Below are positions 49,897 to 58,899 of a stretch of 64,000 bases of DNA, piece by piece (the stretch's first letter is position 1; every line of letters starts with the position of its first letter). Both the position numbers and the translations under genes were made by a program. The DNA comes from Candidatus Dojkabacteria bacterium (lineage in GTDB: Bacteria; Patescibacteriota; Dojkabacteria; SC72; JAFGCJ01): NCBI GenBank assembly GCA_016929645.1, contig JAFGIK010000026.1:14288-78287 (forward strand), given 5' to 3'. The notes beneath the pieces were generated by a model that saw nothing but the letters and a program-made list of their open reading frames with translations, was not told where the DNA came from and searched no databases.

Positions 49897-52800
49897 ATGA
49901 AGCACTTTCGTAAGAACGTTGCAAAGATAATTGCAACAACGTTCATTTTATTTCTAGTCTCAAACCAGGTTTCACCTCTGATTGTTTTTGCTAATGAGGA
50001 AAACATCCAAGAAAATCAGGAAAACGTTGACGAATCTTCAACAACAGAGACATCGACAGACGATTCAGTAGACTCTGAAGTAACAACAACAGAGGCGAAT
50101 ACTGAAGAAGTCACAGAGAACCAAACAGAAGATACAGATGAATCTGAAACTCCTGTTGAGGAATCAACAGACTTGTCAGTTACTGAGACAGAGATTTCAA
50201 ATTCTGACGAAATTGAGACTAATATTGAACAGAATGATATTTTAGAGCCAATGCAATCAGATGTCTCTCCAAGTGCGGCAGGAAATAGTCCAATAACTGT
50301 CTATCTTGGTGACCCAATAAACATGTACGATGACGTACTAAATATGTACGTTATTGCAGAAAACGAAGTTGATCCTTCTGATCCTATCGTTTCTTTCACT
50401 TATAATATTCTCGGAACAGGACTAAACGGAACATTAAATAACGAAGTAACAACAGCATTGACTTGTATCATTAATGGACAAGCAGAAGGTGATCTTGGAG
50501 TAGATAATTGTGTGGCAATAGAAGGATCTAGATCCGTTTATAATATTCCTACCGGAACATACGATATACAAGTATGTGCATACGATGCTGCTGGAGATGT
50601 GGGATGTACAACAGATAGTATTATTGTCGAAAGACCAGTTGGCACGGAGCTAATGACTTACGGAATTCCTGAGGGATATCCAGTCACAGCTTTTCAAGCA
50701 AATGCTACTGCTGGAAATCCTTACGGTTTAACTCTTTATCTTGAATCAAGAATTACCCTTCCTGGTGCAGTATTCGACTGGGCTCCGATGTTCGATGAAT
50801 ACATCCCGGCAGGGACAACAACACTCTTCAATCAAGATGATATTATTGCTGCGACTATCGAAAGAGTCTATGGCGTAAGTGGATACGGATATAATCAATT
50901 CGATTCAAGCGTTTTACCAGAAGGACATTACGAATACAGATACGTATTGGTTGATGATTTTAATAGCTGGTCAAGAAGTATCTATTCACATCCTGGGTAT
51001 AACATTATTGATATGGCAGCAATAGGATTCCCTATGGATAGTAATAGTGATGGATATTCAAGAGAATCACAGTATGCAACTGCATATTACTTTAACTTCC
51101 AACCAGGAAATGTACCTCCAATAATTGATTTTGGTTCAAGCCAGACTATATTTGAAAATGAAGATGTAACATTCCCAGCAAGTTTCTATGACCCAAGTTA
51201 TAGAGCTAGCAGTCCTTTCTGGGGTGGAGCAAACGAACCAGATGACGCACCATGGACAGTTACTGTTGATTATGGTGATGGAGATACTTATGTTGATACT
51301 TATAATACCGACGGAATACTATCAATACCTAACCATACATACAGCGCTATTGGTACCTACACTGCTACACTTCAAATTTGTGAAGCTTCATATAACAGCG
51401 CAGGTTCATGGAATGGTGGCGGTTTATGGGGAAGTATCCAATGGGGAGATGGAGCATGTAGCACATCAACTATTACAGTAAATGTTATAAAAAATGTACC
51501 AGAAGTTGCGATAAGTGCTAATCCAGGATTTTCTGTACAAGAAGGAACAACTGTTACCTTAACAGCAAATGTAACCAACGGAGACGCACCTATATCTTAC
51601 GCATGGAGTGGTGATTGTATTGGTACAACTGACGAAGTTACACTTCCAGATACACCTGGAACATACACATGTACAGTGACTGTCACAGATAGTGATGGAG
51701 ATACTGATTCTGATACCGTTACAGTAGTTGTAAATGAAAATGTACCTACCGTTACAATAGAGGCACTACCTAGTGCAACAGTATACGAAGGTACAAATGT
51801 AATGATAATTGCTCATGCAGATGGCGAAGATACACCATTAACATATTTATGGTCAGGAGATCCTGTTTGTGATGGCGAAGTTGATACAAATGTAGCAATC
51901 CCAGGAGTTACTGGAGTATACACATGTACAATTACAGTTACCGATAGTGATGGCGATACTGCAACAGCAACTATTACAATAACTGTTCTAAACGAAACAC
52001 CAGTTCTTTCAGTGATTGCTAACCCTGGATTTACCGTTAACGAAGGTACAGATGTTACACTTATAGCTTCAGTTGCAAATAGTCACCCAGGTGATGTATA
52101 CGCATGGAGTGGCGATTGTAGTGGAGATACAAACACCGCAGTAGTTCCAGGAATCACAGGAGTATACACATGTACAATCACAGTTACTGATAGAGATGGT
52201 GATGTTGAATCTCAGACTGTTACGGTAACAGTTAACAATAGTGTTCCTACAGTTGCAATTACTGCAAACCCAGGAACAACCGTATATACAGGTACAACAG
52301 TAGTACTTATAGCTAATGCAAGTGGTGTAAATACACCTTTAACATACAACTGGAGAGGTAACTGTGCAGGTAGCAATACTACCGAGACTACAGTGCCAAA
52401 TACACCAGGAACCTATACTTGTTACGTAGATGTTACTGATGCAGATGGAGACATGGCAACAGCATCAATTACAATAACAGTATTGGCAAATCCAGTAGTT
52501 GTTCAACCTACCCAACCAATTGTTACACCAGTTCAGGCAGAAGAAGACGAAGATACAGAGGAAGAAGATAGCGATGTTTTAGGAGAAGAAGATGAAAATG
52601 ATGGAGACAACAACAATGACACATGCGAAGTTGACGCAACTATTAATGGATACGTCTACTACGACAAAAATGGTAATGGCAAGAAAGATGACGATGAGAA
52701 CGGAGTAAAAGATGTAAAGGTCACTATCTACTATCTTGATGATGACGGAAAACGAGTTGTTGTTGACGAAGTTAATACTGATACTGATGGATATTGGGAG

Positions 52801-53055
52801 ACAGAAGTCTGCCATGGTAACTATTGGGTAGAAGTTGATACATCAACATTACCAGATAATGTAGATGTTGACGGAGACAGCAAAGTCGAAGTTAAAGTCA
52901 GTAAAGATGATGAAAAGAATATCACATTTGAAGTCAAAGACAGTGATAACAAGTCTTGGTTCAATGCATGGTATTGCTTGATTCCTCTTCTCTTACTTGT
53001 AGCTGCGGGTATTGGATATGTTGTCCTTACAAACAGCAAGAAAGAAGATAAATAA
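49897..53055 (+). CDS. giant cell-surface protein: signal peptide, acidic linker, 6 PKD/Ig-like repeats, Asp-rich Ca-binding-like (SdrD B / Cna B-like) module, C-terminal TM anchor
   Basis: Repeated ...YAWSGDC.G.T....VP.TPGTYTCT.TVTD.DGD... units; DKNGNGKKDDDENG; C-terminal hydrophobic stretch. Confidence 0.65.
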   Translation: MKHFRKNVAKIIATTFILFLVSNQVSPLIVFANEENIQENQENVDESSTTETSTDDSVDSEVTTTEANTEEVTENQTEDTDESETPVEESTDLSVTETEISNSDEIETNIEQNDILEPMQSDVSPSAAGNSPITVYLGDPINMYDDVLNMYVIAENEVDPSDPIVSFTYNILGTGLNGTLNNEVTTALTCIINGQAEGDLGVDNCVAIEGSRSVYNIPTGTYDIQVCAYDAAGDVGCTTDSIIVERPVGTELMTYGIPEGYPVTAFQANATAGNPYGLTLYLESRITLPGAVFDWAPMFDEYIPAGTTTLFNQDDIIAATIERVYGVSGYGYNQFDSSVLPEGHYEYRYVLVDDFNSWSRSIYSHPGYNIIDMAAIGFPMDSNSDGYSRESQYATAYYFNFQPGNVPPIIDFGSSQTIFENEDVTFPASFYDPSYRASSPFWGGANEPDDAPWTVTVDYGDGDTYVDTYNTDGILSIPNHTYSAIGTYTATLQICEASYNSAGSWNGGGLWGSIQWGDGACSTSTITVNVIKNVPEVAISANPGFSVQEGTTVTLTANVTNGDAPISYAWSGDCIGTTDEVTLPDTPGTYTCTVTVTDSDGDTDSDTVTVVVNENVPTVTIEALPSATVYEGTNVMIIAHADGEDTPLTYLWSGDPVCDGEVDTNVAIPGVTGVYTCTITVTDSDGDTATATITITVLNETPVLSVIANPGFTVNEGTDVTLIASVANSHPGDVYAWSGDCSGDTNTAVVPGITGVYTCTITVTDRDGDVESQTVTVTVNNSVPTVAITANPGTTVYTGTTVVLIANASGVNTPLTYNWRGNCAGSNTTETTVPNTPGTYTCYVDVTDADGDMATASITITVLANPVVVQPTQPIVTPVQAEEDEDTEEEDSDVLGEEDENDGDNNNDTCEVDATINGYVYYDKNGNGKKDDDENGVKDVKVTIYYLDDDGKRVVVDEVNTDTDGYWETEVCHGNYWVEVDTSTLPDNVDVDGDSKVEVKVSKDDEKNITFEVKDSDNKSWFNAWYCLIPLLLLVAAGIGYVVLTNSKKEDK
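51480..52490 (+). repeat. about 250-nt tandem coding repeats (PKD-like domains) inside the surface protein gene
   Basis: Recurring cacatgtaca.t.ac.gt.ac.gatag.gatgg.gat blocks. Confidence 0.6.
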
Positions 53056-53085
53056 GAGATCTTTCTGATTAAGAGATAGCAAGAA

Positions 53086-53115
53086 GGGAGCGGCCGCAAG
53101 GCCGCTCCCTCTTTT
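53086..53115 (+). terminator. GC-rich rho-independent terminator (GGGAGCGGCC-GCAA-GGCCGCTCCC + TCTTTT), likely bidirectional
   Basis: Perfect 10-bp GC stem followed by U-tract, 30 nt after the 53055 stop; convergent gene 53184-53669 ends opposite. Confidence 0.7.
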
Positions 53116-53183: not shown

Positions 53184-53669
53184 CTATACTAAACCCTCAA
53201 CATCTTTAATAAAATCAACAACACCTTTCTCAATCCTTGTGGTCAATTCTTCTTGATTATCAAAATCAGGGTCTTCAACTAAAGTGTATTCAAGAATCGA
53301 ATCGTAGCCATCAAGACTTGGCGGCGTACGGTATTTTCCAAGATCCTTTTTCTGCATCAGATCCAAATATTTTTTTTGTACGTTTTTATTATATCCTGAC
53401 AACCATACCTCAAATCTAGTATCTTCATGAATAAAAACTACTGCAATTTTTAATTTTTTCGACTTAAGAGATTCAGGAATTATTGAGAAATACGTCATAT
53501 CCATATACCCTTGATAAAGTCCTCCTGGTAGCGATAGATTAGCATATTGTTTTTGAAAATATGTCTTCAGCTTCAACATATACTTTAAAATTTCCCGATA
53601 GGCTGTAGGAACATCACCTTTTTGCATTTGGAGTCTGTATTCTTGAATATTGTCATTTATTGATTTCAT
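53184..53669 (-). CDS. hypothetical protein
   Basis: 161 aa, last gene of minus-strand cluster; family not recognised. Confidence 0.45.
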   Translation of the reverse strand: MKSINDNIQEYRLQMQKGDVPTAYREILKYMLKLKTYFQKQYANLSLPGGLYQGYMDMTYFSIIPESLKSKKLKIAVVFIHEDTRFEVWLSGYNKNVQKKYLDLMQKKDLGKYRTPPSLDGYDSILEYTLVEDPDFDNQEELTTRIEKGVVDFIKDVEGLV

Positions 53670-54778: not shown

Positions 54779-55948
54779 TTAACTATTTTTCTCTAGCCAT
54801 GCCTTCACTTCCACTATAGCATATTCTTGCAACTCCTCTATATTTACCAATTCTATCTTTTCATTAAATTTCTCCAGAAGGTCGTAGTGATTCAGATTGC
54901 TTTCATAACATATTGAATGAGGAACATTTTCTTTTTTAACTGCAAATACAATTTTTCTAATCCCTGCCCAATAAGCTCTCGACAAACACATTAAGCATGG
55001 CTCCATTGAGGCATACAACATGCAATCAGTAAGTTGTTCATTAAGCTCGTTTATTGCTATATCAATTGATTTTGATTCTGGGTGAAAGTTGATCTTAGGA
55101 AACGAGGTCGAAGTTGTTTTTGATATTACCTTTCCGTCTTTTACTATAACTGCACCTGCAGGGAATGCTCCTTCATCATAGGATTGATGAGACATTTCTA
55201 TTGCCATTTTTAAATATTCTATGTCTTTATCGTTGTAATCATACTTCTTGATAACTTGAATTGTCCCTGATTTACTTGATCGTAAAATATCCAAAAATAA
55301 TTCAGCTATCTTTTCAGGCGACACAGCATCCTTTGCATATTCTGGAAACCATTTTGTATACTCTTCTGTCGCAGTGTCTGAAGGAGATATTCCGTTCACA
55401 TAGATTTTTTGGTCTTTAAGTTCATCAGCTAAACCGTATGTAAGATCTTCAAGAGCTTTCTTTGAGGCATAATATGGAATCCAACCTTTGCCACCGTTCT
55501 CAAAAGTACCTGAAAGGTTAATAATATGGGAACCTTTATTCATGTATGGTAATAGTCCGTGAATAATTAGGGATGGGGCAGTAAAGCCTACCGAGTATGT
55601 ATCTGTTATTACTTTTTCACCAAAGGTTTCAAAATCTTTTCCTGCAAATACTTCCTTATCATCGTGCCAGATACCCGCAATATTTAAAATAGCATCTATT
55701 CCCGAGTAATTTCCTGCCTTGCAATTATCAATTACTTCATTAAGAAATCCCTTGATATTAAGCTCATCAGTTAGGTCAACTGTATAATATTCAGCTTCGC
55801 CTCCTTTTGATTTAATGTCTCTCACTATTTGGTCTAGTTTGTTGCTGCTTCTCGCAACAAGCAATACCCTATAGCCGTTCTTTGCAAGTTTATTGGCAAC
55901 AGCTTTCCCTATGCCTGTACTTGCTCCAGTTATTATTGCTGTTTTCAT
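54779..55948 (-). CDS. fusion: N-terminal SDR oxidoreductase + C-terminal CDA-fold (cytidine/nucleotide deaminase-like) zinc deaminase
   Basis: TGASTGIGKAV and YxxxK (YYASKKA) for SDR; HPE ... PCLMC zinc-binding pair for deaminase. Confidence 0.65.
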   Translation of the reverse strand: MKTAIITGASTGIGKAVANKLAKNGYRVLLVARSSNKLDQIVRDIKSKGGEAEYYTVDLTDELNIKGFLNEVIDNCKAGNYSGIDAILNIAGIWHDDKEVFAGKDFETFGEKVITDTYSVGFTAPSLIIHGLLPYMNKGSHIINLSGTFENGGKGWIPYYASKKALEDLTYGLADELKDQKIYVNGISPSDTATEEYTKWFPEYAKDAVSPEKIAELFLDILRSSKSGTIQVIKKYDYNDKDIEYLKMAIEMSHQSYDEGAFPAGAVIVKDGKVISKTTSTSFPKINFHPESKSIDIAINELNEQLTDCMLYASMEPCLMCLSRAYWAGIRKIVFAVKKENVPHSICYESNLNHYDLLEKFNEKIELVNIEELQEYAIVEVKAWLEKNS

Positions 55949-56349: not shown

Positions 56350-57153
56350 CTACTCCACAACACAAGATCCTGTACTATCTATCACAGTCATATTCTTTCC
56401 ATGATTCCACATAAAATCAAAAACTTTTTTCTGCATTTCACTAAGTTTTGTATTATAAATTTCCACACCCCAGATTCCTCTTTGAGTTACGCCGTACAGA
56501 CAATAAACGTTATTATAAATCATTAGCTCGACCGACATATCAATAATGCTTGAATCAATATACCTGATATCCCATAAACCAAGAAATTCTGTAACGTCAG
56601 TCCAACCTTTAACTGCCTTTTCATTTGTAAGTTCTCTGTACTTAATATTATTCTTAACATATTCTGCCCTAACGCTGTCATAAAAACCGAAATCTAAATA
56701 TGGAGATAGCTCAGCAACTTCAAAAAGTCTTATTTCTTGTTCAGCTTTTTGAGAATTCCACATAATTTGCTTAAGACCAGCAATTCCAGAGTAGTGAACA
56801 ATTTTTGAGTCCTTTTCAACTCTGGAATATACCTTTGATAGAGTATCAATAGTTTTTTCCACCACCAGAGCTCTTTTTTTTAGAACATCTTTCTTTTCTT
56901 CAAGAATGCCAGCAAGAGAGTCTATTCTCCGAACAACATATATCGAAGATTTATTCTTATCTTTCTTATCAACAAGGGAGAGTTTTGCAAGATGACTCAA
57001 GGATTGACTAATTGCATAATGACTTAGCTTACTTTCATTAACCAATTGTGTAATCGTACGAGGTCCATGATTAATCAGATGCAAAAATATTGATGTTTCA
57101 TCTTTTGAGAGACCAAGTTTTTCAAGATACTCACGAATATAGATTTCTTTCAT
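56350..57153 (-). CDS. TrmB-like winged-helix transcriptional regulator (paralog 2)
   Basis: N-terminal YLEKLGLSKDETSIFLHLINHGPRTITQL wHTH; C-terminal domain shared with upstream paralog. Confidence 0.6.
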   Translation of the reverse strand: MKEIYIREYLEKLGLSKDETSIFLHLINHGPRTITQLVNESKLSHYAISQSLSHLAKLSLVDKKDKNKSSIYVVRRIDSLAGILEEKKDVLKKRALVVEKTIDTLSKVYSRVEKDSKIVHYSGIAGLKQIMWNSQKAEQEIRLFEVAELSPYLDFGFYDSVRAEYVKNNIKYRELTNEKAVKGWTDVTEFLGLWDIRYIDSSIIDMSVELMIYNNVYCLYGVTQRGIWGVEIYNTKLSEMQKKVFDFMWNHGKNMTVIDSTGSCVVE

Positions 57154-57965
57154 AACGAAATTTTCGTTTTACCAAAGTAATTAACTAACTTCATCGGCTT
57201 GGAGAACTTCCAAACAAGATCAAAAATATCCTTTTGCATATCAGCCAATGACTGATTATAGATTTCTACACAAAAAAGTTGACCTTCACTGTAGTCATAC
57301 ATACTATAAACATTATTATAAATAGCACATTCAAATATGATCGGTAACTGTTTTTTTTCAACATAGCGCACTTGCCAAAAATTTTTAACAAACTCATCTA
57401 CATCTGTAAACTCTTCAAAGTTACTAAGATTCGTAAGCTGATAATCCATTATTTTATTACGTACAAACTCAATTATTACTTCCCTACAAAAATTATCACT
57501 GGTAAAATCGTTTAGCATCGAAATTTCATATATTCTAAATTCATCTTTGGATTTAGTCTGATTCCATAATGCTTGCATAAAACCGTCATAGCCCTCATAG
57601 TATTTAACCTCAGTATCCTTGATATCATATTGAATTTTATCCGACAAAAACTCCATAACCCTAGGTAAATCATCCTCAAGGCTTTTCATTTCAACTTCGT
57701 CACCCCAGATTTTCATTTTAAGATCATCGTAAGAACATGTCTCAAAAAGAGTACTGTTTTCACCAATTACCTCTCTTACGAGCTGCTTTGAAATCAAATT
57801 ACGAAGGGCGCGATAAAGATTAGTTCTACTCGTATTCATATTCTTCTTAATGGTACTTACACTTGAAAGTCCAACCTTTAAAAGAAAGAAGTAAATATCA
57901 GCCTCTATTGGAGTTAAACCTAAAGATTTTTGGATTGTAGCATTACGATTATTCGTCTGAATCAT
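57150..57965 (-). CDS. TrmB-like winged-helix transcriptional regulator (paralog 1)
   Basis: LGLTPIEADIYFFLLKVGLSSVSTI wHTH; overlaps paralog 2 by 4 nt (ATGA). Confidence 0.6.
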   Translation of the reverse strand: MIQTNNRNATIQKSLGLTPIEADIYFFLLKVGLSSVSTIKKNMNTSRTNLYRALRNLISKQLVREVIGENSTLFETCSYDDLKMKIWGDEVEMKSLEDDLPRVMEFLSDKIQYDIKDTEVKYYEGYDGFMQALWNQTKSKDEFRIYEISMLNDFTSDNFCREVIIEFVRNKIMDYQLTNLSNFEEFTDVDEFVKNFWQVRYVEKKQLPIIFECAIYNNVYSMYDYSEGQLFCVEIYNQSLADMQKDIFDLVWKFSKPMKLVNYFGKTKISL

Positions 57966-58131
57966 AAGCCCTATAGTTATGTAAAGTTATGCATCAATTA
58001 TATCAGAAATAGTTCATCATGTCCACCGATATCATAGGACACGGAAATTTAAAACTTGTGATATTTCCTAGTACACCAAAATCAATGGTCAGAGTGCAAA
58101 AAAAAACAATAAGTATTATCATACTAAATAG

Positions 58132-58899
58132 ATGAATAATATATCCAAATCACAGAAGAAGACAGCACTCGTAACCGGAGCCTCTAGAGGTATAGGTAAA
58201 TCAATTGCAGAGGCACTTATCAATAACGGTTTTTTCGTCTATGCCACATACAATTCCACAGATATTTCAGATATGGAAAAAAAACATAAGGATAGTCTTG
58301 AATTTATCAAAGTTGATTTCAAATCTACACAGGATTTGCAAAAGTTTATTAAAAATATACAGAAACATAACTTTGATTTAGTTATTAACAATGCAGGGAT
58401 GTTCGAACAGGAAGTTTTTGATAAATACGATCACGATATCTGGTATAACACATTCCAAGTTAATCTACATACAGCCTTCGAAATATGCATAAATCTCATC
58501 GAAAACATTAAAGAAGATGGAAGTATTATTAACATCGCAAGCACTGATGGATATCAAGGATCATTTGGAAGTATGGCATACGCGGCAAGCAAAGCAGCAC
58601 TTCTAAATCTCACAAAAAGCCTGGCTAATAACTATGGAGCACTTGGAGTACGAGTAAACTCAATTTCTCCAGGATGGATAAACACATCAATGGCAACAGA
58701 TGCATCATACGAGGCTGCAAGTCTTTCTCCTCTTGGACGGAATGGTAAACCAGAGGAAATATCAGACGTTGTTTTGTGGCTTGCTTCCGACGCTGCGAGA
58801 TTTGTCACAGGATCTGATATAAAGGTCGATGGCGGATACACAAATGTGGACTACATTATGAAGAAAGAAGCAGAAGATATAAAGAATCAGGAACAATAG
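58132..58899 (+). CDS. SDR family oxidoreductase (FabG-like)
   Basis: TGASRGIGKSI, NNAG, YAASKAA motifs; divergent from TrmB pair. Confidence 0.8.
   Translation: MNNISKSQKKTALVTGASRGIGKSIAEALINNGFFVYATYNSTDISDMEKKHKDSLEFIKVDFKSTQDLQKFIKNIQKHNFDLVINNAGMFEQEVFDKYDHDIWYNTFQVNLHTAFEICINLIENIKEDGSIINIASTDGYQGSFGSMAYAASKAALLNLTKSLANNYGALGVRVNSISPGWINTSMATDASYEAASLSPLGRNGKPEEISDVVLWLASDAARFVTGSDIKVDGGYTNVDYIMKKEAEDIKNQEQ

Follow-up and report, generated by a model that had tools for sequence, protein, structure and literature searches.

A short-chain reductase fused to a TadA/GuaD-type zinc deaminase in Candidatus Dojkabacteria

Why does a Candidatus Dojkabacteria (CPR) genome join a short-chain dehydrogenase/reductase (SDR) to a zinc deaminase in a single gene, and what might the product do? 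Patescibacteria are ultra-small symbionts that are unable to make nucleotides and many cofactors, and to our knowledge their accessory enzymes mostly have no assigned function. The gene considered here occupies 54779..55948 on the minus strand of the window, the whole 64-kb stretch of DNA that was analysed, and the ORF list gives it an ATG start and 389 codons plus a stop. A first-pass annotation had described it as an unusual protein with an N-terminal SDR and a C-terminal deaminase, in the opposite order to RibD and with a different reductase fold. The Pfam domain scan and the motifs bear this description out. The adh_short model (PF00106) covers residues 2–200 (E 5e-36, 124.4 bits against a cutoff of 26.6), dCMP_cyt_deam_1 (PF00383) covers residues 241–336 (E 1.5e-16, 60.6 bits against a cutoff of 25), and MafB19-deam matches residues 244–370, with no match to PF01872, the reductase family of RibD. 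Pfam, the AF2 model, and Foldseek place the SDR domain at residues 1–235 (55244..55948, minus strand); Pfam, a domain model, and Foldseek place the CDA-fold zinc deaminase, of TadA/GuaD type, at residues 236–389 (54782..55243, minus strand). All motif positions were confirmed by translation of 54779..55948. The product is 100 per cent identical to P0001, and no common annotated family has this architecture: NCBI labels the protein only as ‘SDR family NAD(P)-dependent oxidoreductase [Candidatus Dojkabacteria bacterium]’.

The fusion gene encodes a genuine two-domain protein that is maintained by selection. An assembly or frameshift artefact was rejected, as about 22 independent clusters of metagenome proteins share the 384–401-aa architecture, at 49–100 per cent identity. 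Across this series, identity to the window protein drops in parallel in the SDR and deaminase halves (from 87/85 to 49/49 per cent), with both the junction and the catalytic residues conserved. These roughly 22 full-length clusters came from 5.8 billion proteins; a set of 1.84 billion contained one fusion representative. An exhaustive representative search returned no further independent SDR–deaminase fusion, and its two-stretch matches of 330–390 aa were tandem deaminase–deaminase proteins. No full-length fusion was among the matches when GTDB species-representative genomes were scanned with two exact peptide patterns, and a literature search found no description of the architecture. The distribution of the fusion is limited to a small group of ultra-small Patescibacteria centred on Dojkabacteria. 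Each half is a Patescibacteria (CPR)-specific family that is usually encoded by a separate gene, either an SDR of ~242 aa (with well over a thousand relatives) or a deaminase of ~150 aa.

The SDR half has the cofactor-binding motif TGASTGIG (residues 7–14, 55907..55930, minus strand; >90 per cent conserved) and NIAG at residues 89–92, kept as NxAG across the SDR family. Its catalytic segment, LSGTFENGGKGWIPYYASK (55460..55516, minus strand), includes S146, Y159, and K163. Y159 and K163 (Y159-x3-K163) do not vary among the fusions, where conservation of S146 is at least 90 per cent; SGTFE-G-KGW-PY--SK is a hallmark of the SDR family. There is no Asn at any position in residues 100–130, so the Asn of the N-S-Y-K tetrad (helix alpha-E) is missing, and in the stretch where it is expected T117, V120, and G121 are invariant in the family. 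The AF2 model of the domain is a Rossmann fold (pLDDT >95), and its top Foldseek matches are NADP(H)-bound ketoreductases with a TMt of ~0.8. These structural neighbours, together with the nearly invariant Arg33 after strand 2 (ARSS, 55844–55855, minus strand), suggest that the cofactor is NADP(H). The window SDR scores far under the cutoffs of all NCBIfam SDR equivalogs.

In the deaminase half, HPE (residues 289–291, 55076..55084, minus strand) provides the zinc-ligand His and the catalytic Glu, and PCLMC (residues 317–321, 54986..55000, minus strand) provides two zinc-ligand cysteines, with C318 and C321 invariant. HxE is found in 98 of the 104 deaminase-family members, and HPE was seen again in independent assemblies. 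The H, E, C, and C residues are retained by the stand-alone deaminase family and by 19 of the 22 fusions, including the window protein. The catalytic Glu is replaced by Asp or Gly in three of the 22 (HSD in P0015, HAG in P0017, and HAD in P0023), which implies that deamination is dispensable in some members.

Two further positions bear on the substrate pocket. Ser280, in KTTS (residues 277–280, 55109..55120, minus strand), aligns with the substrate-binding Asn of the reference enzymes TadA, GuaD (N42), and FCY1, and this Ser is nearly invariant across the deaminase family; the TadA reference in the alignment was that of E. coli. CYESN (residues 347–351, 54896..54910, minus strand) contains a family-specific invariant Tyr-Glu. 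Its Glu, E349, aligns with D113 of Bacillus subtilis GuaD (BsGuaD), beside D114, in an alignment that is uncertain by +/-1 residue. Guanine and cytosine deaminases use a second acidic residue (BsGuaD D114, NeGD E143) (PMC11963756), and the position of E349 makes it a possible second proton shuttle. In the pocket, FPAG, Ser280, and YE are equally conserved in fusions and stand-alone deaminases. The secondary-structure order of the domain model (pLDDT 97.3) is that of the helix-4 division, as strands 4 and 5 are separated by helices and a C-terminal helix is present, and Foldseek aligns it at a TM of ~0.8 with TadA, plant guanosine deaminase, NE0047, and Msd. With a pI of 4.9 and a net charge of -9 (family median pI 5.5), the domain is strongly acidic, as is its C-terminal helix.

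The two domains meet at GTIQVIKKYDYND (residues 228–240, 55229..55267, minus strand), where the last SDR strand runs into the first deaminase helix. In the full-length AF2 model (pLDDT 96.3, pTM 0.91), strand 229–233 leads straight to a helix starting at residue 240, and all fusions keep the junction (GTIQVIKKY-Y). The halves are thus predicted to be rigidly joined, with no flexible linker, and the confident fixed geometry between them points to a co-evolved interface. A PDB fold search with this model returned SDR structures only and no entry carrying both domains.

In neighbour-joining trees built without support values, the SDR halves of 21 of the 22 fusions form one clade, and stand-alone deaminases are interleaved with fusions in the deaminase tree. 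One stand-alone deaminase, P0128, begins with TIQVSNKHDYD, a relic of the fusion junction; tblastn detected no SDR remnants upstream of the stand-alone deaminase at locus L015. This pattern suggests that the fusion is old, arose once, and has since lost its SDR half repeatedly. At the loci examined, no stand-alone SDR gene lay next to a stand-alone deaminase gene, and the two did not share an assembly among 80 genome loci found with two exact peptide patterns. As the halves are mostly separate genes, were never found adjacent or in the same assembly, and include an SDR that seems to have been lost repeatedly, any coupling of their reactions would be at most facultative. The SDR in one stand-alone-deaminase operon (L019) was considered as a partner and rejected, being a different SDR with 28 per cent identity. 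We also rejected the idea that the C-terminal extension of 358-aa SDR relatives is a degenerate deaminase; the extension has no significant Pfam match either and may be ParB/Srx-like, a guess from a DGxHR motif.

The surroundings of the gene in the window are not typical of the fusion. Two tandem TrmB-like HTH regulators with a 4-nt overlap (Pfam TrmB; 56350..57965, minus strand) lie upstream on the same strand. The best promoter-like site is at 58025–57997 and no terminator-like site occurs from there to the fusion, in a scan that overall performed at chance level; the regulators and the fusion may form a common transcription unit. The regulators are absent from six related loci (L001, L004, L024, L107, L108, and L109), and BLAST found nothing in common between the window neighbours and the orthologous loci L001 and L004. 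Beside fusions of 78–85 per cent identity, the TrmB pair, the ORFs of 88, 83, and 221 aa, and DUF7000 are not conserved. A weak DUF7000 match (28 per cent identity) recurs near a stand-alone deaminase. The first-pass annotation placed the gene in a putative island, a proposal that finds no backing here: the GC profile of the region is flat, searches returned no mobility, phage, or defence matches, and housekeeping genes (RecA, MscL, and acetyl-CoA synthetase) lie nearby; in an orthologous locus, too, the acetyl-CoA synthetase gene is ~6 kb away from the fusion. Searches of the window with defence and phage libraries gave generic domain similarity only. An anti-phage deaminase or defence system was rejected, as the PADLOC dCTPase match is limited to 37 residues (15.9 bits, E 0.001) and relatives score 18–32 bits against a cutoff of 400 for the NCBIfam antiphage_deaminase model.

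The immediate neighbourhood of the fusion is different in nearly every locus. The fusion and both stand-alone families recur beside a PF06821 serine hydrolase, Ldh_2, HAD, NUDIX, HIT, YfbR-like HD, and other SDR genes. PF06821 lies no more than 4 kb away in ~12 of 79 dereplicated loci (rough binomial P < 1e-5, assuming one copy per genome and independent loci), and it directly adjoins, in the same orientation, the SDR in three loci (L032, L035, and L065), the deaminase in one (L087, with a 4-nt overlap), and the fusion in another (L107). Ldh_2 adjoins both the deaminase (L019/L031) and the SDR (L028, L034), and NUDIX and HAD genes are found beside stand-alone SDRs and deaminases alike. One fusion with 85 per cent identity sits in a tight eight-gene cluster (PNPOx-fusion-SDR-HD(YfbR-like)-SDR-HAD-SerHyd-PhzF), of which SDR246 (61 per cent) and SerHyd (77 per cent) are orthologous to genes of the stand-alone-deaminase operon L019. 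The nucleotide-hydrolase type of these common neighbours favours nucleobase- or nucleoside-like substrates rather than pterins.

What, then, does the fusion do? It probably acts on nucleobase- or nucleoside-like small molecules. Our best explanation, in which we have about as much confidence as doubt, is a bifunctional small-molecule enzyme, an NADPH carbonyl reductase and a nucleobase/nucleoside-type deaminase with facultative coupling. The deaminase half would hydrolytically remove the exocyclic amino group of a nucleobase-, nucleoside-, or nucleotide-like compound and not act on tRNA, and the SDR half would carry out NADPH-driven carbonyl reduction of the same compound or of a neighbour in the pathway. 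Both halves would belong to a variable salvage and house-cleaning ‘toolbox’ kept in tight clusters by nucleotide-auxotrophic symbionts, along with the PF06821 serine hydrolase, HAD, NUDIX, HIT, YfbR-like HD phosphohydrolase, Ldh_2, further SDRs, and PNPOx-like and PhzF-like proteins. None of these partner genes is present in the 64-kb window. The fusion would most likely have arisen once and the SDR half have been lost several times later, which would make coupling of the two reactions advantageous and not obligatory.

It is somewhat unlikely, yet deserves the most serious attention among the alternatives, that the fusion is fortuitous: a stop codon lost between unrelated accessory neighbours would have left independent halves with unrelated substrates and no information about a pathway. 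Gene clusters in CPR genomes are packed extremely tightly, with 4-nt overlaps in many places, and the SDR half seems to have been lost repeatedly with no visible effect on the deaminase. In P0048 and P0105 the same ~242-aa SDR family carries an unrelated ~120-aa domain, attached at the identical junction, and the lack of co-occurrence of the stand-alone families among the genome loci matched by the two peptide patterns also fits an accidental union. Against this, the fusion persists to ~49 per cent identity with a conserved junction and equally conserved halves, its inter-domain geometry is fixed (pTM 0.91), and the same unusual neighbours accompany the fusion and both families across different CPR classes.

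Another reading, which we regard as improbable, is that the fusion is a ‘Rosetta stone’ of an undescribed two-step pathway specific to Patescibacteria, with SDR reduction and deamination by the Ser-for-Asn enzyme applied to one host-derived compound by one rigid body. The compound would be nucleoside- or pyrimidine/pterin-like and could be handed over directly between juxtaposed active sites, with the remaining salvage or detoxification steps supplied by the PF06821 hydrolase, the HD, HAD, NUDIX, and HIT phosphohydrolases, Ldh_2, and the PhzF-like and PNPOx-like proteins.

A divergent tRNA adenosine-34 deaminase (TadA) with an accessory SDR domain is very improbable. TadA is among the best matches in both sequence (1wwr, E 1e-13) and fold (TM 0.80–0.82), and its model is the sole NCBIfam match of the deaminase domain. 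Relatives are labelled ‘TadA’ by JGI via COG, and one stand-alone relative (L022) sits between the genes for an aspartyl/asparaginyl-tRNA synthetase and DnaJ. However, that NCBIfam match (NF008113) reaches 41.4 bits against a cutoff of 150 and covers only positions 8–109 of the 165 in the profile, with nothing past the PCxxC strand; guanine, guanosine, and other base deaminases are equally good matches. The conserved Asn after strand 2 of TadA (G-x-N) is Ser280 here, and acidity is pronounced in both the domain and its C-terminal helix. Several members have lost the catalytic Glu or a zinc Cys, which would not be tolerable in an essential TadA, and the distribution is sporadic, with small-molecule enzymes as neighbours. 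The only tRNAs within the window are tRNA-Gln and tRNA-Pro.

We give less credence still to a non-orthologous replacement of RibD or a pterin enzyme, in which a pyrimidine or pterin deaminase would be paired with an SDR in place of the DHFR-like RibD_C. RibD combines the same two chemistries, a stand-alone SDR-family member (L011/L012) overlaps a RibD_C/DHFR-like gene by 4 nt, and SDRs include known pterin reductases (sepiapterin reductase, PTR1, and FolM). Set against these points, TIGR00326 does not match the window domain and gives relatives 23–25 bits against a cutoff of 156, and no riboflavin, folate, or pterin genes occur in the window or in ~110 related loci. RibD deaminases also carry an insert with a conserved His inside the CxxC motif (PMC3239186), in place of the plain PCLMC seen here. 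Least probable of all is a deaminase domain that serves the SDR mainly by binding a ligand or by oligomerising, and not as a catalyst: domains of the TadA/GuaD type form obligate dimers (PMC3239186) and three of the 22 fusions have replaced the catalytic Glu, but the other 19, including the window protein, and the stand-alone family keep all four active-site residues, and the pocket is conserved as in the stand-alone enzymes.

The fusion physically links two abundant Patescibacteria-specific families, the ~242-aa SDR and the ~150-aa deaminase, whose substrate pocket is altered, and together with the common gene neighbours it gives a testable starting point for the substrates of both. An SDR joined to a TadA/GuaD-type deaminase is an architecture that is not in the published catalogue of deaminase domain architectures. 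If both reactions act on one metabolite, a deaminase–reductase enzyme would have been invented independently a second time, with RibD as the first case; otherwise the fusion is a rare, lineage-specific one and of limited consequence.

Among known systems, RibD is the obvious comparison, as it also places a zinc deaminase of the CDA fold and helix-4 division (HxE/PCxxC) and an NADPH-dependent reductase on one polypeptide. Its deaminase is N-terminal and its DHFR-like RibD_C domain (PF01872) is C-terminal, whereas the SDR is N-terminal in the fusion, which has no CxxC insert, no riboflavin-pathway context, and no match to the RibD model. The reductase half resembles classical NADP(H) SDR ketoreductases (FabG, the metagenomic SDR 3RKR, LanV/UrdMred, ActKR, and YciK) in its TGxxxGxG, NxAG, Ser-Tyr-Lys triad, and Arg after strand 2, at a TMt of ~0.8 and 22–28 per cent identity. 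Unlike them, it has no tetrad Asn, has its own GIWH and SGTFENG-KGW-PY motifs, and has a short C-terminus ending in the strand that leads to the deaminase.

The deaminase half shares the ~150-aa full fold (TM 0.77–0.80), HxE and PCxMC, and acidic character of B. subtilis GuaD (1WKQ), N. europaea NE0047, M. smegmatis Msd, Arabidopsis guanosine deaminase (7DBF), and yeast FCY1. Its ‘AYWA’ helix resembles that of GuaD, and its acidic E349 aligns, to within one residue, with the B. subtilis GuaD D113/D114 position. It differs from this group in sequence (19–27 per cent identity), in having Ser for the substrate-binding Asn (GuaD N42), and in its invariant FPAG, YE(S/G), and FNEKI motifs and SDR partner. 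GuaD is a domain-swapped obligate dimer in which a C-terminal Tyr reaches the neighbour’s site, and because of this swap 1wkq/1tiy superpose poorly on the deaminase monomer model (rmsd ~16 Å). TadA provides the best PDB sequence match (1wwr) and a similar fold, C-terminal helix included; the fusion deaminase, by contrast, lacks the post-strand-4 loop covered by the TadA model, has an acidic surface, and is not universally present. Among catalogued deaminases, an N-terminal Rossmann-type domain had been recorded in one clade only, that of the LmjF36.5940-like proteins (Iyer et al. 2011, PMC3239186). That clade, known from eukaryotes and Bdellovibrio, is derived from CDD/CDA enzymes of the C-terminal hairpin division, whereas the Dojkabacteria fusion pairs a true classical SDR with a deaminase of helix-4 topology, in which helices separate strands 4 and 5.

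The ORF at 54779..55948 (minus strand, ATG start) encodes a 389-aa protein in which, as the first-pass annotation had proposed, a short-chain dehydrogenase/reductase (SDR) is fused to a zinc deaminase. The HMM scan recovered both domains, with Pfam matches to adh_short (classical short-chain dehydrogenase/reductase; residues 2-200, E 5e-36) and to the zinc deaminase models dCMP_cyt_deam_1 (residues 241-336, E 1.5e-16) and MafB19-deam (residues 244-370), all well over gathering scores. Translation of the exact coordinates places TGASTGIG at residues 7-14, NIAG at 89-92, S146 and Y159-x3-K163 in the SDR, HPE at 289-291 and PCLMC at 317-321. Since domains and motifs agree, that description was right. 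A point that description did not include is that residues 100-130 hold no Asn, so the canonical N-S-Y-K tetrad is present without its Asn.

An NCBI entry from Candidatus Dojkabacteria bacterium is 100% identical and is annotated as 'SDR family NAD(P)-dependent oxidoreductase', nothing further. The same architecture does occur in other proteins, though it is rare: among 5.8 billion clustered proteins there are about 22 full-length fusion clusters (384-401 aa, 49-86% identity), all of metagenome origin, and when 1.84 billion representatives at 50% identity were scanned exhaustively with HMMER, a single full-length one (P0016) emerged. Other two-stretch HMMER matches of similar length were rejected as SDR fusions, being tandem deaminases. 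With one genome per GTDB species, searched by two exact peptide patterns, 80 loci each matched residues 1-235 or about 236-389, and none (0/80) matched both. Among the fusions, identity of the SDR and deaminase halves to the window protein falls together (from 87/85% to 49/49%), the SDR triad and cofactor motifs are kept in all, and the junction GTIQVIKKY-Y is likewise conserved. AlphaFold2, given an alignment of 101 sequences, returned a mean pLDDT of 96.3 and a pTM of 0.91. In this model the final SDR strand (229-233) is followed after six residues by the first deaminase helix (from 240), and therefore the domains have a fixed arrangement and are not tethered. The fusion is genuine, conserved and rigid with intact catalytic residues, is confined to a small Patescibacteria group, and is made of two lineage-specific families.

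The SDR half shares 50-57% identity with a highly abundant family of ~242-aa stand-alone SDRs from Microgenomatia and other Patescibacteria (hallmarks GIWH, SGTFENG-KGW-PY--SK and SPSDTAT). Arg33 after strand 2 and the best structural neighbours, which are NADP(H)-bound ketoreductases, point to NADPH as its cofactor. All NCBIfam SDR equivalogs scored far under cutoff. In P0048 and P0105 (loci L013 and L014) the same SDR family is joined at the same junction, KIKVIKK, to an unrelated C-terminal domain of ~120 aa carrying LLDGLHRL. This domain had no significant Pfam match and is not a deaminase; its motif prompts a guess at a ParB/Srx-like fold. At L011 (4480-5732) and L012, a stand-alone member overlaps by 4 nt the gene for a 174-aa RibD_C/DHFR-like reductase, and AAA/HNH and HAD genes come after the pair.

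Stand-alone Dojkabacteria proteins of ~150 aa share up to 79% identity with the deaminase half, and proteins of Paceibacteria and Saccharimonadia are related to it more distantly. Of two neighbour-joining trees, which carry no support values, the one of SDR halves groups 21 of the 22 fusions in a single clade, separate from stand-alone SDRs, and in the deaminase tree fusions interleave with stand-alone deaminases; the deaminase domain of the fusion P0016, for instance, is 88% identical to stand-alone P0126. Another stand-alone protein, P0128, starts with TIQVSNKHDYD, against TIQVIKKYDYN at the fusion junction, and this start is a relic of that junction. The simplest reading is a single fusion, then several losses of the SDR half. 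A word-indexed search with the deaminase half alone omitted P0001-P0025 despite up to 100% identity, an apparent tool quirk that affects reuse of the match lists.

In the window, the fusion belongs to a same-strand string of two TrmB-like genes, an 88-aa ORF, the fusion, an 83-aa ORF, a 221-aa ORF and DUF7000. The TrmB-like HTH regulators (56350-57965, minus strand; 271 and 267 aa) are tandem paralogues, 28% identical with a 4-nt overlap, and have in common a ~200-aa C-terminal domain without a Pfam match; a FabG-like SDR gene (58132-58899) lies opposite them across a divergent intergenic region. Scans that performed at chance level overall gave a single good promoter-like site, which precedes the first TrmB gene, and inside the string they found no terminator-like site. 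This context is not conserved at any orthologous locus. Nor is there an obvious island, as had been suggested: GC content is flat, RecA, MscL, L,D-transpeptidase and ADP-forming acetyl-CoA synthetase all lie within 13 kb (the last is also near the fusion in L001), and PADLOC and PHROGs found nothing specific in the region. The DUF7000 gene (53184-53669, minus strand; PF22526, E 2e-56) is three genes downstream of the fusion. A 28%-identical DUF7000 (L015, 7034-7510) lies two genes downstream of P0128, which could be loose synteny or chance. On the plus strand, 49897-53055 encodes a predicted 1052-aa surface protein, which has a signal-like segment at its N terminus and a transmembrane anchor at its C terminus and contains a low-complexity acidic region and no fewer than four repeats of ~90 aa (…TYTCTVTVTDSDGD…). 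The region's strongest terminator-like hairpin (53085-53110) comes after it.

We sorted all ORFs from about 79 dereplicated loci, each bearing the fusion, the stand-alone SDR or the stand-alone deaminase, into clusters. The two stand-alone genes never adjoined each other in these loci, and they have neighbours in common. In about 12 loci a PF06821 serine hydrolase is no more than 4 kb away (P < 1e-5); it is directly adjacent to and co-oriented with the SDR in L032, L035 and L065, with the deaminase in L087 (4-nt overlap) and with the fusion in L107 (19-nt gap). Ldh_2 (P 0.001-0.02) adjoins the deaminase (L019/L031) and the SDR (L028, L034); both P values are rough binomial estimates that treat loci as independent and take each genome to have a single copy. 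NUDIX and HAD genes also occur beside both stand-alone families. P0006, an 85%-identical fusion, belongs to a very tight cluster of eight genes (PNPOx-like, fusion, SDR, YfbR-like HD phosphohydrolase, SDR, HAD, PF06821 hydrolase, PhzF-like), whose HD protein is weakly similar to the 5'-deoxynucleotidase equivalog. Two genes of this cluster, for SDR246 and the hydrolase, have orthologues (61% and 77% identity) in L019, an operon with the stand-alone deaminase. L019 further carries Ldh_2, a HIT protein and a protein judged CYTH-like from its EIERKW motif. In L024, the HIT and 181-aa genes come after the fusion as well. Conserved neighbours of the window fusion itself were not found in orthologous loci, and none of these recurring partners lies within the 64-kb window.

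Three fusion loci have other features. In L109 (1049-9004; jgi 3300048839 Ga0498923_0000951) a defence-type block of N6_N4 methyltransferase, AAA ATPase, ResIII helicase and CBASS-like SMODS and SLATT_4 is directly upstream of, and partly overlaps, the PNPOx-fusion-SDR-HD-SDR-HAD-SerHyd-PhzF cluster described above. In L001 (10258-15440; ena:ERZ27247989 k141_3183146), from a Dojkabacteria-like CPR genome, there is a CasX locus: the gene next downstream of P0015, a fusion orthologue, encodes a 1115-aa protein that is a clear Cas12e/CasX (NCBIfam NF045604, 541 bits vs cutoff 200), and Cas4, Cas1 and Cas2 come after it. The upstream genes are identical in the sister contigs L002 and L003, which lack the insertion. 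In L004 (7717-7974), an 85-aa ORF just upstream of the orthologue P0017 is probably a decayed SDR gene, because its sequence resembles the C-terminal portion of a further SDR (…LKILTVNPGPTKTKM…). P0017 has HAG where the catalytic HxE is expected.

The reading we favour, at about even confidence, is a bifunctional enzyme for small molecules that would pair an NADPH-dependent carbonyl reductase with a nucleobase/nucleoside-type deaminase, reduction and deamination being coupled facultatively, as part of a variable toolbox of salvage or house-cleaning enzymes. The interpretation offered with the first-pass annotation is supported in part. The main rival, in which unrelated accessory genes of a compacted genome became fused by chance, is possible but clearly less probable.

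The H, C and C of the zinc site are essentially invariant across 104 aligned deaminase family members. Where GuaD (N42), TadA and FCY1 have a substrate-binding Asn, the family has a nearly invariant Ser (S280), and an invariant Tyr-Glu (Y348, E349) aligns, give or take one residue, to BsGuaD F112-D113, beside D114; guanine and cytosine deaminases of this fold require a second acidic residue (PMC11963756). The deaminase model (pLDDT 97.3) superposes equally, at a TM of about 0.8, on TadA, Arabidopsis guanosine deaminase, NE0047 and Msd, so the fold alone is silent on substrate. A divergent TadA is improbable: the domain reaches 41 bits with the TadA equivalog model (cutoff 150), and the match ends after the PCxxC strand; a pI of 4.9 and a net charge of -9 make it an acidic domain (the median pI of the family is 5.5); and the catalytic Glu, found in 98/104 members, is Asp in five and Gly in one, fusions accounting for three of these six. 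These features disfavour a tRNA substrate. A non-catalytic deaminase module, to which such losses are relevant, is the least credible reading, and a RibD or pterin-pathway analogue is also very unlikely; all three rank below fortuitous fusion.

For RibD, its model gives no match to the window deaminase, and the RibD-specific CxxC insert (PMC3239186) is missing. No solved structure spanning both domains was found (best TMq 0.54, SDR part alone), and literature searches returned no account of the architecture. The published catalogue of deaminase architectures includes RibD as well as a clade that derives from CDD and has a Rossmann domain at the N terminus, and an SDR-deaminase arrangement like that of the window protein is absent from it (PMC3239186). 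The SDR-deaminase fusion, rare and uncharacterised, combines known enzyme superfamilies in a new variant of domain architecture and offers helpful leads on two large Patescibacteria families.
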